Shown here: one piece after another, positions 1-5,312 of the stretch
How the letters are laid out: each line of letters starts with the position of its first letter
Position numbering within the stretch: position 1 is the first letter of the stretch
From: a virus
Lineage: Duplodnaviria > Heunggongvirae > Uroviricota > Caudoviricetes
IMG/VR virus record: IMGVR_UViG_2547132415_000018
Reading direction: 5' to 3' (one strand)
DNA length: 5,312 nt
Notes under the pieces: generated by a model
Databases searched by the model: none
What the model was told of the DNA's origin: nothing
The model's input: only the letters and a program-made list of their open reading frames with translations
Translations under genes and position numbers: made by a program

Positions 1-95
1 AAATCCCAGACTAAATCATCACATAACCATGACATTTTTCTGATATTCCCCGGTAACGCCAGATGTCGACTCGCTTATCTCATCCGCCCGACATG

Positions 96-124
96 TTGTA
101 CATGCAATATGTGCGGATTATTAT
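96..124 (+). promoter_or_regulatory. Candidate sigma70 promoter upstream of vgrG (-35 TTGTAC at 96-101, 17-bp spacer, -10 TATTAT at 119-124)
   Basis: Hexamers read directly from the sequence; spacing is canonical and they sit about 20 nt upstream of a GGAGG Shine-Dalgarno (135-139) and the vgrG ATG at 145. This is a pattern match only, with no transcript evidence. Confidence 0.25.
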
Positions 125-144
125 TCATTTTCACGGAGGTTGCT

Positions 145-2286
145 ATGTCAACCGGATTACGTTTCACACTTGAAGTGGACGGCCTGCCACCGGACGCGTT
201 TGCGGTGGTTTCCTTTCATCTCACCCAGTCACTCTCTTCGCTCTTTTCCCTCGATCTCTCTCTGGTCAGCCAGCAGTTTCTCTCCCTTGAATTTGCGCAG
301 GTGCTGGACAAAATGGCCTACCTGACGGTATGGCAGGGCGATGAAGTACAGCGCCGGGTGAAAGGCGTGGTGACCTGGTTTGAACTCGGGGAGAACGACA
401 AAAACCAGATGCTGTACAGCATGAAGGTGCACCCGCCGCTGTGGCGTGCCGGTCTGCGCCAGAACTTCCGTATCTTCCAGAACGAGGACATCAAAAGCAT
501 CCTCGGCACGATGTTGCAGGAAAACGGGGTGACCGAATGGAGTCCGCTGTTCAGCGAGCCGCATCCTTCCCGTGAGTTTTGTGTCCAGTACGGTGAGACT
601 GATTACGATTTCCTGTGCCGGATGGCGGCGGAGGAAGGCATCTTCTTTTATGAGGAGCATGCTTACAAAAGTACCGACCAGAGCCTGGTGCTGTGCGACA
701 CAGTCCGCCATCTGCCCGAATCTTTTGAAATCCCATGGAACCCGAACACCCGTACCGAGGTGAGCACCCTCTGCATCAGCCAGTTCCGCTACAGCGCACA
801 AATCCGCCCTTCTTCCGTGGTGACCAAAGACTACACCTTTAAACGCCCCGGCTGGGCCGGACGTTTTGAACAGGAAGGCCAGCACCAGGACTACCAGCGC
901 ACGCAGTATGAAGTGTATGACTACCCCGGACGTTTCAAGGGTGCCCACGGGCAGAACTTTGCCCGCTGGCAGATGGACGGCTGGCGAAACAATGCAGAAA
1001 CCGCGCGGGGAATGAGCCGCTCGCCGGAGATATGGCCGGGACGGCGAATTGTGCTGACGGGGCATCCGCAGGCGAACCTGAACCGGGAATGGCAGGTGGT
1101 GGCAAGTGAACTGCACGGCGAGCAGCCGCAGGCGGTGCCGGGACGCAGGGGTTCAGGAACCACGCTGGATAACCATTTTGCGGTAATACCGGCAGACAGA
1201 ACATGGCGACCACAGCCGTTGCTGAAACCGCTGGTGGACGGCCCGCAGAGCGCCGTCGTGACGGGACCGGCAGGCGAGGAAATCTTCTGTGATGAACATG
1301 GCCGCGTGCGGGTGAAATTTAACTGGGACCGTTATAACCCGTCAAACCAGGACAGTTCATGCTGGATCCGTGTGGCACAGGCGTGGGCAGGCACCGGCTT
1401 TGGTAACCTGGCGATACCGCGTGTGGGTCAGGAGGTGATTGTGGACTTCCTCAACGGCGACCCGGACCAGCCGATCATTATGGGGCGTACCTACCACCAG
1501 GAAAACCGCACCCCCGGCAGCCTGCCGGGGACGAAGACGCAGATGACGATCCGCTCGAAAACCTATAAGGGCAGCGGGTTTAATGAACTGAAGTTTGACG
1601 ATGCGACAGGGAAAGAACAGGTCTACATCCACGCGCAGAAGAACATGAACACCGAGGTGCTGAATAACCGCACCACTGATGTGATAAACAACCATGCCGA
1701 AAAAATAGGTAACAACCAGGCGATCACCGTTACCAATAACCAGATCCAGAACATTGGCGTTAATCAGATACAGACGGTTGGTGTCAACCAGGTGGAAACG
1801 GTGGGCAGTAACCAGATTATCAAAGTGGGATCAAACCAGGTTGAAAAGGTGGGGATCATTCGTGCGCTGACGGTGGGTGTGGCTTACCAGACGACGGTAG
1901 GCGGCATTATGAATACCTCGGTGGCGTTGTTGCAGTCCTCACAGGTAGGGCTGCATAAATCACTGATGGTGGGAATGGGCTACAGCGTCAATGTGGGGAA
2001 TAACGTCACCTTCTCGGTGGGCAAGACAATGAAGGAAAACACCGGACAAACAGCAGTTTATTCTGCCGGTGAGCATCTTGAACTCTGCTGTGGTAAGGCA
2101 AGGCTGGTGCTGACGAAGGACGGAAGCATATTTCTCAATGGTACGCACATTCATCTGGAAGGGGAGTCGGATGTGAACGGTGATGCGCCAGTGATTAACT
2201 GGAACTGTGGTGCCACACAACCTGTACCGGATGCGCCTGTGCCGAAAGATTTACCCCCCGGAATGCCGGATATGCGGCAATTTTGA
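145..2286 (+). CDS. vgrG: Type VI secretion system spike/tip protein VgrG (713 aa)
   Basis: ORF 109..2286 from the supplied track. I prefer the internal ATG at 145 (MSTGLRFTLEVDGL...) because GGAGG lies 5 nt upstream, whereas the 109 start adds 12 hydrophobic residues with no ribosome-binding site. The translation has the typical VgrG layout: a gp27-like N-terminal region, a central region (VKFNWDRY...GQEVIVDFLNGDPDQPIIMGRTYH), and a gp5-like beta-helix made of VxxNQ octapeptide repeats. Confidence 0.92.
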   Translation: MSTGLRFTLEVDGLPPDAFAVVSFHLTQSLSSLFSLDLSLVSQQFLSLEFAQVLDKMAYLTVWQGDEVQRRVKGVVTWFELGENDKNQMLYSMKVHPPLWRAGLRQNFRIFQNEDIKSILGTMLQENGVTEWSPLFSEPHPSREFCVQYGETDYDFLCRMAAEEGIFFYEEHAYKSTDQSLVLCDTVRHLPESFEIPWNPNTRTEVSTLCISQFRYSAQIRPSSVVTKDYTFKRPGWAGRFEQEGQHQDYQRTQYEVYDYPGRFKGAHGQNFARWQMDGWRNNAETARGMSRSPEIWPGRRIVLTGHPQANLNREWQVVASELHGEQPQAVPGRRGSGTTLDNHFAVIPADRTWRPQPLLKPLVDGPQSAVVTGPAGEEIFCDEHGRVRVKFNWDRYNPSNQDSSCWIRVAQAWAGTGFGNLAIPRVGQEVIVDFLNGDPDQPIIMGRTYHQENRTPGSLPGTKTQMTIRSKTYKGSGFNELKFDDATGKEQVYIHAQKNMNTEVLNNRTTDVINNHAEKIGNNQAITVTNNQIQNIGVNQIQTVGVNQVETVGSNQIIKVGSNQVEKVGIIRALTVGVAYQTTVGGIMNTSVALLQSSQVGLHKSLMVGMGYSVNVGNNVTFSVGKTMKENTGQTAVYSAGEHLELCCGKARLVLTKDGSIFLNGTHIHLEGESDVNGDAPVINWNCGATQPVPDAPVPKDLPPGMPDMRQF
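1708..1851 (+). repeat. Six tandem 24-bp units encoding the VgrG beta-helix octapeptide repeats (GNNQAITV, TNNQIQNI, GVNQIQTV, GVNQVETV, GSNQIIKV, GSNQVEKV)
   Basis: The 8-codon periodicity with a conserved N-Q at positions 3-4 and V/I at position 8 is visible in the translation and as a recurring AAYCAG in the DNA. This is a coding-sequence repeat inside vgrG, not an independent element. Confidence 0.7.
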
Positions 2287-2361: not shown

Positions 2362-2640
2362 ATGGGCGGAAAACCGGCGGCGCGGCAGGGTGATATGACC
2401 CGCAAGGGACTGGATATTGTGCAGGGTTCAGCGGGGGTGCTGATAGGTGCGCCGACGGGAGTGGCCTGTTCGGTATGTCCGGGAGGGATTACCTATGCTA
2501 ACCCGGTGAACCCGCTGCTGGGTGCGAAGGTGCTACCGGGCGAGACGGACCTTGCGCTGCCCGGCCCGCTGCCGTTTATTCTTTCCCGCGCCTACAGCAG
2601 CTACCGGACCAGAACACCCGCGCCGGTGGGGGTGTTTGGT
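2362..2640 (+). other. PAAR domain coding region at the N-terminus of the Rhs protein (approximate extent)
   Basis: A PAAR motif at residues 5-8 (KPAARQGD) followed by a Gly/Cys-rich stretch ([14 protein letters not shown]). The domain boundary is estimated by eye, not computed. Confidence 0.5.
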
Positions 2641-4542
2641 CCCGGCTGGAAAGCGCCCTTCGATATCCGCTTACAGATACGCGATGAAGGCCTGATACTC
2701 AACGACAACGGCGGCAGGAGCATTCACTTTGAGCCGCTGTTTCCCGGCGAGATAAGCTACAGCCGCAGCGAGTCACTCTGGCTGGCGCGGGGCGGGGTGG
2801 CGGAGCAGCACAGTTCGCAGCCGCTAAGCGCACTCTGGCAGGTGCTGCCGGAAGATGTTCGCCTGAGTCCGCATGTGTACCTGGCGACAAACAGCCTTAA
2901 GAGGCCGTGGTGGATACTCAGCTGGCCGGAGCGGGTGCCGGGGGCGGACGAGGTGCTGCCGCCGGAGCCGCCCGCATACCGGGTGCTGACGGGCGTGGTG
3001 GACGGCTTCGGGCGGACGCTGACTTTCCACCGGGCGGCGGAGGGTGACGTGGCGGGCGCGGTGACGGGGGTGACGGACGGCGCGGGCCGCTGTTTTCACC
3101 TGGTGCTGACCACACAGGCGCAGCGGGCGGAAGCCTTCCGTAAACAGCGCGCCACGTCTTTATCTTCCCCTGCCGGTCCCCGTTCTGCTTCCTCTTCTTC
3201 TGCTTTCCCCGACACGCTGCCCGCCGGTACAGAATACGGTGCCGATAACGGTATCCGGCTGGAGGCGGTGTGGCTGACACACGACCCGGCATACCCGGAT
3301 GAACAGCCGACTGCGCCGCTGGCGCGCTACCTCTATGACCCGCTGGGCCGCCGGACGGGAAAACGGGTATGGCGGCGGGAGCGTGACCTGACGGGGTGGA
3401 TGTCGCTGTCGCGTAAACCGGAGGAGACCTGGTACGGGTGGGACGGTGACAGGCTGACCACTGTACAGACCCAACAGACAAGAATCCAGACGGTATACCA
3501 GCCGGGAAGCTTCACGCCGCTCCTGAGAATCGAAACAGAGAATGGCGAACAGGCGAAGGCGCGGCACCGGAGCCTAGCGGAGGTGTTGCAGGAGGACACG
3601 GGGGTGACGCTTCCGGCGGAGCTGGCGGTGATGCTGGGGAGGCTGGAGCGGGAACTGCGTGCGGGAGCGGTGAGTGCGGAGAGTGAGGCATGGCTTGCGC
3701 AGTGCGGGCTGACGGTGGAGCAGATGGAAAGCCAGATGGAGGCGGAATACATCCCGGAGCGGAGGCTGCATCTTTACCACTGTGACCACCGGGGACTGCC
3801 GCAGGCGCTCATCAGCCCGGAAGGGGAAACGGCGTGGTGCGGGGAGTATGACGAGTGGGGGAACCAGCTTAATGAGGAGAACCCGCATCACCTGTACCAG
3901 CCGTACCGTTTGCCGGGGCAGCAGTATGATGAGGAGTCGGGACTGTATTACAACCGTCACCGGTACTACGATCCGTTGCAGGGGCGGTATATCACCCAGG
4001 ATCCGATAGGGTTGAAGGGGGGAATAAATCTATACACGTATCCACTGGCACCAATACGTTACACTGATCCACTGGGGTTAGAACGAGTTATAAGTGTATA
4101 TGGGCCTCCCGCTCCAGACCGGGCAGGTGCTGAAACTCCTCTTGTTCTTACTGATATGACTGGAGGAGTGACTATTTATTATGATCCTGAAACAGGTGAT
4201 TCAATGACTTTTGATAGTAGCAATAGAATTGATCGTCGTTCTCAACGTGGTGCTGGTGATCCATATACAGGTGAAGTCGTTGGTTGTGAGACAAATGAAT
4301 CAGGAATATCGGCAGCATATGGCACAACGAAGATCTATACTACAGATACTAGAGCAAGATGGCTACATGGTGGGGGATCATCGTTGCGCGATCCTTATGC
4401 TCCTCGACAAGGCTGGAAACCAACTATGGGATGTACCCGTGCACAGAATGAAGATGTAGATGAGTTGTGTAAGAAAGTGACAAGTTGGATGTATTCGCAT
4501 CCTGGAGAGAGAATTAGATATGAACGTTTTAAGACACGTTAA
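2362..4542 (+). CDS. PAAR-domain Rhs-family polymorphic toxin, 726 aa, apparently lacking most of the YD-repeat shell through an in-frame internal deletion; carries a C-terminal toxin domain
   Basis: The ATG at 2362 is preceded by GAAGGAA (2348-2354). The N-terminus ([12 protein letters not shown]...[14 protein letters not shown]...[20 protein letters not shown]) is the PAAR-containing N-terminal region typical of E. coli RhsA-like proteins. The C-terminal part (YLYDPLGRR...[14 protein letters not shown]...[45 protein letters not shown]) is the conserved end of the Rhs core. Canonical Rhs proteins are about 1400 aa, so a 726-aa protein with both ends must be missing the shell. Confidence 0.88.
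3331..4080 (+). other. Retained C-terminal part of the Rhs core (Rhs repeat-associated core region) ending in PxxxxDPxGL
   Basis: The segment begins right after the inferred deletion junction ([14 protein letters not shown]). DPIGL is encoded at 4000-4014 and the terminal [10 protein letters not shown] ends at 4080, which is where Rhs C-terminal toxin domains normally begin. Confidence 0.6.
4081..4539 (+). other. C-terminal toxin domain of the Rhs protein (residues 574-726), candidate YkuD-like L,D-transpeptidase-fold peptidoglycan-targeting toxin
   Basis: The sequence becomes AT-rich immediately after the DPLGL demarcation. Residues 667-702 read WLHGGG-x18[14 protein letters not shown], which resembles the H-G...(S/T)-x-G-C-x-R-x-x-N-x-D catalytic signature of YkuD-type L,D-transpeptidases. 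The family assignment is by eye only. Confidence 0.45.
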
Positions 4543-4738
4543 TGCGATTAACATGGGAGTGTGCATTCTAATTTTGGTTATTGGATGTGCAAATGCTAAA
4601 GTTCTTAAACGATGTATATTACCCGCTCCTGATGGTGGCGTAGAAAAACTATCAAAACCCAACTTACATGGAGTAATTAAAAAAGTTGATTTGAACACAA
4701 ATGAAGCGGAAATTAAAATAAAAGAGGGGGGGCAGTGA
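4520..4738 (+). CDS. Small predicted lipoprotein (72 aa), candidate cognate immunity protein
   Basis: The ATG at 4520 overlaps the last 23 nt of the rhs gene and is preceded by GGAGAGAG (4504-4511). The N-terminus [23 protein letters not shown] has a charged n-region, a hydrophobic core and a lipobox-like VIGC. Its position directly downstream of an Rhs toxin domain is the classic immunity-gene position. The alternative start at ATG 4553 lacks a good ribosome-binding site. Confidence 0.5.
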
Positions 4739-4911
4739 GTTTTATTTTTAATGAGGAAACATTGTATTTTACTGTTTTTGGTGGGGATTTTATTATGGAT
4801 GATTTAAAAAAAGTAAAAAATACGGAAGCATGGGTATGGTATAAAAATTGCGATAGTAAAAATAAAAATGTGGCAGTTGAACTTCTTCAAATCTACGAAT
4901 TGCATCAATGA
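4735..4911 (+). CDS. Hypothetical small protein (58 aa from GTG 4735; 38 aa if started at ATG 4795)
   Basis: The ORF is not in the supplied track because it starts with GTG. That GTG overlaps the stop of the upstream ORF (GTGA) and is preceded by the strong purine-rich AGAGGGGGGG (4722-4732). The AT-rich composition and small size make this a weak call. Confidence 0.25.
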   Translation: MSFIFNEETLYFTVFGGDFIMDDLKKVKNTEAWVWYKNCDSKNKNVAVELLQIYELHQ

Positions 4912-4951: not shown

Positions 4952-4976
4952 AGCATCACGTGATGCTGATTTTTTG
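4952..4976 (+). terminator. Candidate rho-independent terminator (palindrome AGCATCAC/GTGATGCT followed by a T6 run)
   Basis: A perfect 8+8 inverted repeat at 4952-4967 is followed by GA then TTTTTT (4970-4975), downstream of the toxin, immunity and small-ORF cluster. The very short loop is a caveat; it could instead be a protein-binding palindrome. Confidence 0.4.
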
Positions 4977-5312
4977 CACTAAATAATTCGCATTTTATGT
5001 TTAAAAATTGAGATATTCCTTATTACCTAAAGCTGTTTTTTATTGCTTATACATGATCAAATACTCCTTACATAATTAAGGAGAACAAAATGGAACTTAA
5101 AAAATTGATGGAGCATATTTCTATTATCCCCGATTACAGACAAGCCTGGAAAGTGGAACATAAATTATCGGATATTCTACTGTTGACTATTTGTGCCGTT
5201 ATTTCTGGTGCAGAAGGTTGGGAAGATATAGAGGATTTTGGGGAAACACATCTCGATTTTTTGAAGCAATATGGTGATTTTGAAAATGGCATTCCTGTTC
5301 ACGATACCATTG
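4977..5312 (+). mobile_element. Probable left part of an H-repeat (ISAs1-family) insertion element; left boundary not determined
   Basis: Inferred only from the transposase gene at 5090 onward. I could not identify the terminal inverted repeat, so the start coordinate is a placeholder somewhere between 4912 and 5089. Confidence 0.3.
5090..5312 (+). CDS. ISAs1-family transposase (H-repeat-associated protein), N-terminal 74 codons only; the gene continues past the window end
   Basis: The ATG at 5090 is preceded by AAGGAG (5078-5083). The translation [74 protein letters not shown] matches, from memory, the N-terminus of E. coli H-repeat-associated proteins (YhhI/YdcC-type). There is no stop before the window edge. 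Confidence 0.85.

Follow-up and report, generated by a model that had tools for sequence, protein, structure and literature searches.

A single-nucleotide frameshift in a G tract splits a candidate immunity gene downstream of an Rhs toxin of Escherichia coli

In the 5,312-nt stretch of DNA analysed here (the window), the end of an rhs gene overlaps a small open reading frame (ORF) that was originally predicted to encode a lipoprotein, with a mature part of only about 50 aa, acting as a periplasmic immunity protein against the toxin domain of Rhs. Does so short an ORF represent a complete gene, and would its product plausibly protect against the toxin encoded immediately upstream?

The ORF (4520..4738, plus strand) opens with an ATG at 4520, closes with a TGA at 4736-4738 and shares 23 nt with the end of rhs, whose TAA stop codon is located at 4540-4542. 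A Shine-Dalgarno-like sequence, GGAGAGAG, was read at 4504..4511 (plus strand), 8 nt before the ATG. The 72-aa translation product contains Arg5 in its n-region and Cys23 in a V-I-G-C lipobox (residues 20-23; 4577..4588, plus strand), with Ala at position +2 and, directly thereafter, a possible signal peptidase I site (A-N-A/K). The overlap, the upstream ribosome-binding sequence and the lipobox followed by Ala, all of which were part of the original prediction, were thus found as described. An identical protein is recorded on at least 1,000 contigs, and distant homologues exist, so that the ORF was judged to be a genuine coding sequence and not one that arose by chance. In UniProt, the 72-aa form carries the automatic name 'Lipoprotein'.

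The start codon, which had been considered ambiguous between 4520 and 4553, was re-evaluated with a PROSITE PS51257-type lipoprotein rule ([LVI][ASTVI][GAS]C after an uncharged h-region, Cys at positions 15-35 and K or R within the first seven residues). Only translation from 4520 fitted this pattern; from 4553, the Cys would be at position 12 and the preceding segment would lack a charge. A start at 4520 is therefore favoured on sequence grounds by the Shine-Dalgarno sequence, the charged n-region, an N-terminal length equal to that of a 50%-identical homologue (P0058) and the choice made by PGAP. When the same pattern was applied to 35 family members, a strict lipobox was found in two, while most carried A-x-A-type sites. 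Conservation of the lipobox Cys was sought among these 35 homologues and was absent as a family feature. Judged from its sequence, lipidation of the E. coli protein is plausible, but the rarity of the lipobox Cys, together with the A-N-A/K site that follows it in the E. coli protein, argues against lipidation as a trait of the family.

A search for an intact reading frame in the window showed that the frame is broken. Sequence and allele comparison located the break at a homopolymer of seven G residues (G7; 4726..4732, plus strand), where the in-frame allele has eight (G8). A second ORF, listed as a 58-aa ORF with a GTG start (4735..4911, plus strand), lies in the -1 frame relative to the ORF at 4520 and lacks a separate signal sequence. 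Insertion of one G joins both ORFs into a single 130-aa protein. In RefSeq, G8 strains carry a single 393-nt coding sequence (WP_001101835.1, annotated by PGAP), and in G7 strains the gene is divided into 72 + 58 just as in the window. These observations established that 4520..4911 is one gene of 130 codons, interrupted because a G8 tract has lost one residue.

Sequence, alignment and structural model agreed on how the gene is divided over the two fragments. The 5' fragment (72 codons) encodes the signal sequence, beta-strands 1 and 2 and a conserved C-I-L-P-A-P-D-G-G segment; its final codon (CAG, Gln72) is no longer in the reading frame of the intact protein. The 3' fragment encodes strands 3-6, a helix, an invariant FGGD motif, W107 and Cys111. 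A terminator-like hairpin, AGCATCACGTGATGCT, followed by a T-run (4952..4976, plus strand; two such sites found, against 0.4 expected from shuffles) is situated 41 nt past the end of the 130-codon frame and thus follows that frame rather than the 72-codon ORF. The original view of the 72-aa ORF as the gene could consequently not be maintained, and the unusually small mature part of about 50 aa was an artefact of the frameshift at the G7 run. Since four of the six predicted strands, the FGGD motif, W107 and Cys111 are missing from it, the 72-aa fragment in the window is most likely non-functional. The end of the Rhs element is marked further downstream by the start of an ISAs1-family (H-repeat) transposase gene (5090..5312, plus strand), which was identified by a match to Pfam DDE_Tnp_1_assoc (E = 7e-26) and by the RefSeq annotations of related strains and does not belong to the toxin-immunity pair.

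Homologues of the 130-aa protein were sought by several routes. A word-index search retrieved close E. coli relatives only, and a five-sequence profile search of species-representative genomes yielded two loci, a decayed copy in Shigella flexneri and an orphan in Azoarcus. A full HMMER scan gave 64 matches, which included about 40 distant proteins of 117-151 aa with 27-50% identity. These distant relatives aligned over residues 17-127, that is, across the frameshift junction. In the family alignment (A1), P35, D38, G51, G88 and G89 were invariant and C32, W107 and C111 were at least 90% conserved, and nearly all of the 35 family members had N-terminal hydrophobic signal sequences. An AlphaFold2 (AF2) model of the intact protein (pLDDT 87.6), in which two of the six strands precede the break, confidently predicted an OB-type fold; its structural neighbours included the periplasmic metallochaperones CusF and SilF, and also YobA.

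None of the catalogued families accommodated the protein. When DUF2195 was sought, the 130-aa protein had no Pfam match at E <= 1 and none of the 35 members had one at E <= 0.01; neither Imm57 nor Imm16 was matched, and an NCBIfam search gave no matches. DUF4367, a name used by some databases, was rejected: the score of 21.8 bits remained below the cut-off of 22.1 and was reached by just 1 of 35 members, the E. coli protein. A search of the immunity-family profile against the PDB returned spurious designed 'Pizza' propellers and weak matches to YobA, which were likewise discarded. Single-sequence PDB searches gave no match for either the 130-aa protein or the toxin. The secreted protein with its predicted OB-fold is thus covered by no Pfam or NCBIfam model and has no PDB relative by sequence.

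The upstream gene, rhs (2362..4542, plus strand), identified from the ORF list and by Pfam matches to DUF6531 and RHS, encodes a 726-aa Rhs protein. According to sequence and Pfam, its N-terminus is DUF6531/PAAR-like and a DPIGL...DPLGL boundary precedes the C-terminal toxin. Relative to the 1,411-aa Rhs protein of strain J2, the core is shortened by an in-frame deletion of 2,055 nt. From the Rhs core into the C-terminal toxin and immunity cassette, GC content falls from 64% to 44%, and then to 36% and 28%.

Pfam, alignment and modelling were combined to characterize the toxin domain (Rhs residues 574-726; 4081..4542, plus strand), which was assigned a YkuD-type L,D-transpeptidase/carboxypeptidase fold. 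Its match to Pfam YkuD (PF03734) scored 25.1 bits, above the gathering threshold of 23.4, and 14 of 16 toxin homologues matched the same family. In the toxin alignment (A2; numbering within the toxin domain), His96 was invariant and Cys118, part of a G-C-T-R motif, was at least 90% conserved. An AF2 model reached a pLDDT of 77, and its best 16 Foldseek matches in the PDB were all YkuD-fold enzymes, with TM scores of about 0.5; a PDB profile search with the toxin alignment matched the Rhs core boundary and nothing else. Profile match and model together identify the C-terminal domain as a predicted L,D-transpeptidase fold of the YkuD type, which would imply a periplasmic target.

Linkage of the two families was then evaluated. 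The arrangement of the window, with an immunity gene that overlaps the toxin stop codon on the same strand, was shared by 1,015 E. coli genomes. Outside this locus, diverged toxin copies or remnants were found directly upstream of diverged family members on three unrelated contigs. A 46%-identical toxin ends 3 nt before one homologue (P0072, locus L016), a 3' remnant of the toxin lies just upstream of another (P0078, L017) in an Rhs array, and a C-terminal toxin remnant overlaps the start of P0058 (L011-13) within a poly-immunity island of Imm57, Rap1a and MafI2 genes. Across these linked loci, toxin identity was 44-68% and partner identity 35-50%. Upstream of three distant members (P0063, P0079 and P0093), no toxin was found. 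Other toxin homologues were followed by an unrelated secreted protein of about 200 aa. These proteins were examined as possible Imm57 members or remote relatives of the 130-aa protein and were neither; the toxin family also employs a second, unrelated partner family.

Consistent with a periplasmic site of action of both proteins, signal sequences occur in almost every one of the 35 members and the toxin has the predicted fold of a peptidoglycan enzyme, a test of protein location that relied on sequence. Taken together with the linkage, these data indicate that the intact 130-aa protein is most likely the cognate immunity protein of the upstream Rhs toxin. The proposal of a periplasmic immunity protein thus has support as far as the intact gene is concerned, but in the window that gene is disrupted.

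To place the G7 allele in context, tract length was compared across the 1,015 complete E. coli genomes that contain the locus. With 1,018 occurrences in these genomes, the locus is single-copy. An intact gene with exactly G8 was found in 718 of the 1,015 and a split gene with exactly G7 in 184; some of these G-run calls in long-read assemblies may be homopolymer errors, but each of the exact protein forms is documented by at least 1,000 contigs. In other strains, G6 and G9 alleles were also present, with out-of-frame tails. Both G7 and G8 occurred on two distinct flanking haplotypes, with G8 in the majority on each. Strains STEC276 (G7) and J2 (G8) were identical at 7,434 of 7,435 bp, the single difference being one G of the tract, and the Rhs protein of STEC276 is apparently intact. 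The locus thus displays a trait of phase variation, namely an intragenic homopolymer with recurrent on/off length alleles, from G6 to G9.

The explanation that best accounts for these data, to which we assign a probability of roughly 0.8, combines a split gene, an exported OB-fold immunity protein and an unstable G tract. According to this model, the intact product would be exported via its N-terminal signal sequence and, in E. coli, would probably acquire a lipid anchor at Cys23 and be directed to the outer membrane. It is predicted to fold as a small OB-type beta-barrel, to which, as conservation suggests, the N-terminal C32-I-L-P-x-P-D-G-G segment would probably be pinned by a Cys32-Cys111 disulfide. 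The protein would then bind and block the toxin in the periplasm. Slipped-strand mispairing would make the G tract unstable, so that off-frame alleles arise repeatedly. In the window strain, the gene would be off and its 72-aa remnant most likely inactive. Such a loss of immunity may be tolerable because the toxin would find no substrate in the cytoplasm of its producer, and attack by sister cells is probably absent owing to the large internal deletion in the Rhs protein of this strain. In STEC276, a G7 allele is combined with an intact Rhs protein, and a dead immunity gene should carry a cost if the T6SS is active; this case leaves room for residual function or read-through.

In a rival reading, the 72-aa ORF would itself be a complete mini-lipoprotein whose conserved segment sufficed to block the toxin. 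Conservation in the family is indeed strongest in a stretch (C32, L34, P35, D38, G51 and I53) encoded by the first ORF, and G7 is a common allele that in STEC276 lies beside an apparently intact Rhs. This interpretation is nevertheless highly improbable: all distant homologues span the break in the alignment and are about 117-151 aa long, FGGD, W107 and Cys111 are missing, the two strands that remain of six could not form an OB-barrel, and on either haplotype most alleles are G8. Moreover, G6 and G9 give other out-of-frame tails, as would be expected from random slippage and not from selection of a short form. Just as improbable is a periplasmic OB-fold protein with another role, such as metal or ligand binding as in CusF and SilF, that merely hitch-hikes beside the toxin; its structural neighbours CusF, SilF and YobA and the three distant members that have no toxin neighbour are compatible with such a role.

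In another reading, the G tract would act as a phase-variation switch or G7 would be partly rescued by a -1 ribosomal or transcriptional slip, either of which would make immunity tunable instead of lost. The range of tract lengths from G6 to G9, the presence of G7 and G8 on two haplotypes and the strain pair that differs by one G are in line with this idea. In addition, GAG GGG GGG CAG formally fits the X XXY YYZ pattern, the -1 frame continues with the native GCA GTG AGT, and a -1 slip on G GGG GGG would restore the wild-type sequence (...E-G-G-A-V-S-F...) exactly. However, downstream RNA folding was no better than chance (z = 0.01), the in-frame G8 majority implies that frameshifting is not the designed mode of expression, and homologues such as P0058 (...TDEIVYF) have no G-run at this position. 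All-G slippery sequences are not known to rank among the -1 frameshift sites that work efficiently in E. coli. A programmed -1 frameshift site was rejected, as the heptamer is formal only, with no structure, a G8 majority and no G-run in homologues, and the switch or slip reading as a whole is unlikely. A bolder extension, in which the G8 tract is an on/off immunity switch, set to off in roughly one strain in five and at times beside an intact toxin gene, with a leaky off state or a partly inhibitory remnant, and in which the protein founds a family of OB-fold immunity proteins against YkuD-type Rhs toxins, is unlikely.

The locus fits the known architecture of Rhs elements. Orphan modules of Rhs and CDI systems typically consist of a GC-poor cassette after a GC-rich core, with an immunity gene that overlaps the toxin stop codon and an ISAs1/H-repeat element further downstream, and orphan immunity genes are found behind 3' remnants of toxins. 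Relative to E. coli Rhs elements, the locus shows all typical features, and the homopolymer frameshift in the immunity gene is its sole oddity. Phase variation through homopolymeric tracts is well known from the contingency loci of Neisseria, Haemophilus and Campylobacter. The intragenic poly-G tract studied here resembles these loci in that natural alleles that differ by one or two G switch the reading frame on or off. In contrast to them, G8 is short for a dedicated tract and the tract is missing from homologues; passive mutational decay fits the data equally well.

Two described systems come closest to the toxin-immunity pair. Tlde1/Tldi1, encoded on SPI-6 of Salmonella Typhimurium, comprises a T6SS L,D-transpeptidase-like effector with catalytic His and Cys residues that is toxic in the periplasm only, and a periplasmic immunity protein of 138 aa with a Sec signal that is encoded adjacent to it (J Biol Chem 2022, PMC9638812; 10.1101/2020.02.18.954545). 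Rare Rhs-fused versions of Tlde1 have been reported in Shigella and Escherichia (10.1101/2020.02.18.954545). The pair described here shares with Tlde1/Tldi1 an L,D-transpeptidase-type fold with His and Cys and a small secreted immunity protein encoded adjacent to the toxin. The toxins differ in that the present one belongs to YkuD rather than DUF2778 and has T-x-G-C-T-R in place of (S/T)-H-G-C, with no second His; none of the 16 toxin members matched DUF2778, and Tlde1a was not among the PDB matches by sequence or fold. Unlike Tldi1, the 130-aa protein is predicted to have an OB-fold, does not match DUF2195 and is encoded downstream of the toxin, whereas the Tldi1 gene lies upstream of the effector gene according to the preprint (10.1101/2020.02.18.954545). 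The second system is Tox-LD-peptidase, found at the C-terminus of T6SS-secreted Rhs-repeat proteins with an adjacent Imm16 or Imm57 gene (Zhang et al. 2012, Biol Direct 7:18, PMC3482391). Both systems combine an L,D-peptidase toxin at the Rhs C-terminus with an adjacent immunity gene, and the island around P0058 carries Imm57. The partner identified here, however, matches neither Imm16 nor Imm57 (DUF2750, PF15596), and its predicted all-beta OB-fold differs from the mostly alpha structure of Imm57 (PMC3482391).

The toxin-immunity module is therefore ordinary in itself, while its immunity family is uncatalogued. The 'tiny lipoprotein' does not represent a new class of mini-immunity protein; instead, about 18% of locus-bearing E. 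coli genomes list 72- and 58-aa 'hypothetical proteins' that together make up a single gene, and annotation of the pair as one frameshifted pseudogene is called for. The YkuD-type Rhs toxin and its OB-fold partner add an uncatalogued candidate immunity family to the L,D-peptidase toxin systems. While slippage of the G tract would be of real interest in its own right only if switching were fast or adaptive, its recurrence among E. coli strains provides a simple natural experiment on the circumstances in which a T6SS immunity gene may be lost.

The window holds four features: vgrG (109..2286), a PAAR-like/DUF6531-Rhs gene (2362..4542), two small ORFs (4520..4738 and 4735..4911) and the start of an ISAs1 transposase gene (from 5090). 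The small ORFs together cover a 130-codon frame, 3' of which lies a terminator-like hairpin with a T-run (4952-4976). Across 4080..4911, GC content declines in steps: the Rhs core has 64%, the toxin domain 44%, and the two parts of the immunity gene 36 and 28%, a pattern typical of horizontally exchanged CT/immunity cassettes. Bases 1..133 did not align to the haplotype-A strains that otherwise matched best (AR_0061, J2) and aligned with O121/O103-type loci, so that the window is a mosaic of both upstream arrangements; none of the genomes in the collection was fully identical to it.

In the original prediction, 4520..4738 was read as a gene for a small lipoprotein and candidate immunity protein. 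The ATG at 4520, its 23-nt overlap with the rhs stop, the GGAGAGAG at 4504-4511, 8 nt upstream of this ATG, and a V-I-G-C lipobox with Cys23 and Ala at +2 were all found in the sequence. The functional guess was good, whereas the gene model was wrong, as this ORF is part of a 130-aa gene. It ends with a TGA (4736-4738) immediately 3' of a run of seven Gs (4726-4732), while the second ORF (4735 to 4911) is in the -1 frame relative to it; insertion of one G fuses both into a single 130-aa protein. At loci with eight Gs (G8), in strain 120899 and others, PGAP calls a single 393-nt CDS (WP_001101835.1), while strains with seven Gs (G7) carry the split pair seen in the window (WP_001101836.1 and WP_000008098.1). 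Representative proteins numbering 1.84 billion were scanned in full with HMMER, which gave 64 matches; about 40 of these are distant relatives (27-50% identity, 117-151 aa), whose alignment covers residues 17-127 and spans the frameshift break. In a 35-sequence alignment, P35, D38, G51, G88, and G89 were invariant and C32, L34, I53, W107, and C111 were conserved in at least 90% of sequences; of these, W107 and C111 are encoded by the second ORF, as is the FGGD motif. The 72-aa and 58-aa ORFs are one protein, not two, and a frameshift in a homopolymer has most likely put the immunity gene out of action in this strain.

Translation had been proposed to start at either 4520 or 4553. The former is favored by its Shine-Dalgarno sequence, a charged n-region with Cys at position 23, an N-terminal length equal to that of homolog P0058, and the choice made by PGAP. 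The 4553 start has no Shine-Dalgarno sequence and fails the lipoprotein rule, because it places the Cys at residue 12 with no charge ahead of it. Of 35 family members, only 2 have a strict lipobox; A-x-A sites a few residues ahead of the conserved Cys are found in most, and the E. coli protein itself has A-N-A|K directly past Cys23. Lipid anchoring and, given Ala at +2, outer-membrane sorting of the E. coli protein are plausible and somewhat favored, but lipid anchoring is not a trait of the family.

Short exact-match searches located 1,018 places in 1,015 complete E. coli genomes, indicating a single-copy locus; G8 was present in 718 genomes and G7 in 184, making the intact single-gene form the majority state. 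A G9 allele (AR202.2) and G6 alleles also occurred. The exact 72-, 58-, and 130-aa proteins were each recorded on at least 1,000 contigs, and the split allele is thus not a one-off assembly error. Strains STEC276 (G7) and J2 (G8) encode identical 1,411-aa Rhs proteins and are identical over 7,434 of 7,435 bp, the sole difference being this one G of the tract. Both alleles were present on each of two flanking haplotypes, one window-like and the other common to O121, O103, and NCTC9064, suggesting two or more independent events or a recombination event. Formally, the native protein would be regained by slipping back one base (-1) on G GGG GGG. Programmed recoding was disfavored: RNA 3' of the tract was no more stably folded than its shuffled versions (z = 0.01), and no G-run occurred at this position in homologs in the 35-sequence alignment. 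These two results argue for passive slipped-strand mutation at a tract that is unstable in length.

The toxin domain (Rhs residues 574-726) begins after DPIGL...DPLGL and, scanned alone, matched Pfam YkuD (25.1 bits, threshold 23.4). YkuD was matched by 14 of 16 toxin homologs and DUF2778 by none of the 16. Within the family, His96 is invariant and G-C118-T-R120 nearly so. The best 16 PDB structural matches to the toxin model (pLDDT 77) were all YkuD-fold L,D-transpeptidases or L,D-carboxypeptidases (Csd6, Pgp2, Ldtfm, Bd1075, the Mycobacterium Ldts, and DpaA). Such enzymes act on the peptidoglycan stem peptide, which makes the periplasm the expected site of toxin action.

We put the probability that the 130-aa protein is the immunity protein of the Rhs toxin, which it would bind and neutralize, at about 0.8. 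This role is favored by the position of the gene and its overlap with the toxin gene, by signal sequences across the family, and by linkage to toxins recurring in diverged contexts: a 46%-identical toxin stops 3 nt upstream of homolog P0072 (L016), an uncalled toxin 3' remnant (1146-1520 of L017) precedes P0078 in an Rhs array, and the 50%-identical P0058 overlaps at its start with what remains of a toxin C-terminus (L011-13). On a Logan contig (SRR31736489; L011, 1376-7213), P0058 stands in a same-strand array of small genes matching Imm57 (two copies), Rap1a-like, DUF7668, and MafI2, an apparent poly-immunity island. Against the role, no toxin was found upstream of P0063, P0079, and P0093, and three other toxin homologs are followed by an unrelated secreted family of about 200 aa (L003, 3597-4190; L006, 3645-4253; L008, 2204-2821), for which hhalign gave a 0.1% probability of relationship to the 130-aa family. 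One toxin family thus has two non-homologous candidate immunity families. The three toxins concerned share about 45-50% identity with that of the window, and their partners are mutually related, with several conserved Cys and an R-I-D-D-A-V-A-R-E motif. In an Azoarcus MAG (L028, 3737-4396), some 300 nt separate the orphan P0063 from a downstream ORF whose product closely resembles the N-terminus of the window's Rhs, indicating that the 130-aa family travels with Rhs loci outside Enterobacteriaceae.

Loss of immunity may be tolerated because the toxin would find nothing to act on in the cytoplasm of the producing cell, so that immunity would matter only against attack by sister cells. In addition, 2,055 nt are deleted in frame from the interior of the window's Rhs gene (726 aa versus the usual 1,411), which probably disables delivery. 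The junction, at about 3325-3330, has a 6-nt overlap, and the unequal identity of its flanks to J2 (left 97.4%, right 99.65%) is suggestive of recombination between copies of the rhs core. The same deletion is present in AR_0061 and MDK9L1. Among O121 and O103 strains, annotation marks rhs as frameshifted. In STEC276, if its G7 call is correct, the G7 gene lies beside an apparently intact 1,411-aa Rhs, with no second copy of the locus. In Shigella flexneri SFBU0723 (L027, 1300-3400), an interruption breaks the toxin domain and several lesions affect the immunity gene despite G8, which looks like decay of the whole module.

The module works like the Salmonella Tlde1/Tldi1 pair, in which an L,D-transpeptidase-like effector of the T6SS is matched by a small immunity protein in the periplasm (PMC9638812; preprint 10.1101/2020.02.18.954545), and is likewise consistent with the Rhs toxins of the Tox-LD-peptidase class (Zhang et al., 2012; PMC3482391). 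Membership of the toxin in Tlde1 was ruled out, as its domain is YkuD rather than DUF2778 and the histidine of (S/T)-H-G-C is missing; the immunity protein matched no DUF2195, Imm16, or Imm57 profile, which excluded these families. Within the literature library searched, these protein accessions are named in no paper. The module is an ordinary Rhs toxin-immunity cassette, whose modest novelty lies in an uncatalogued OB-fold candidate immunity family against YkuD-type Rhs toxins, together with a length-unstable G tract.
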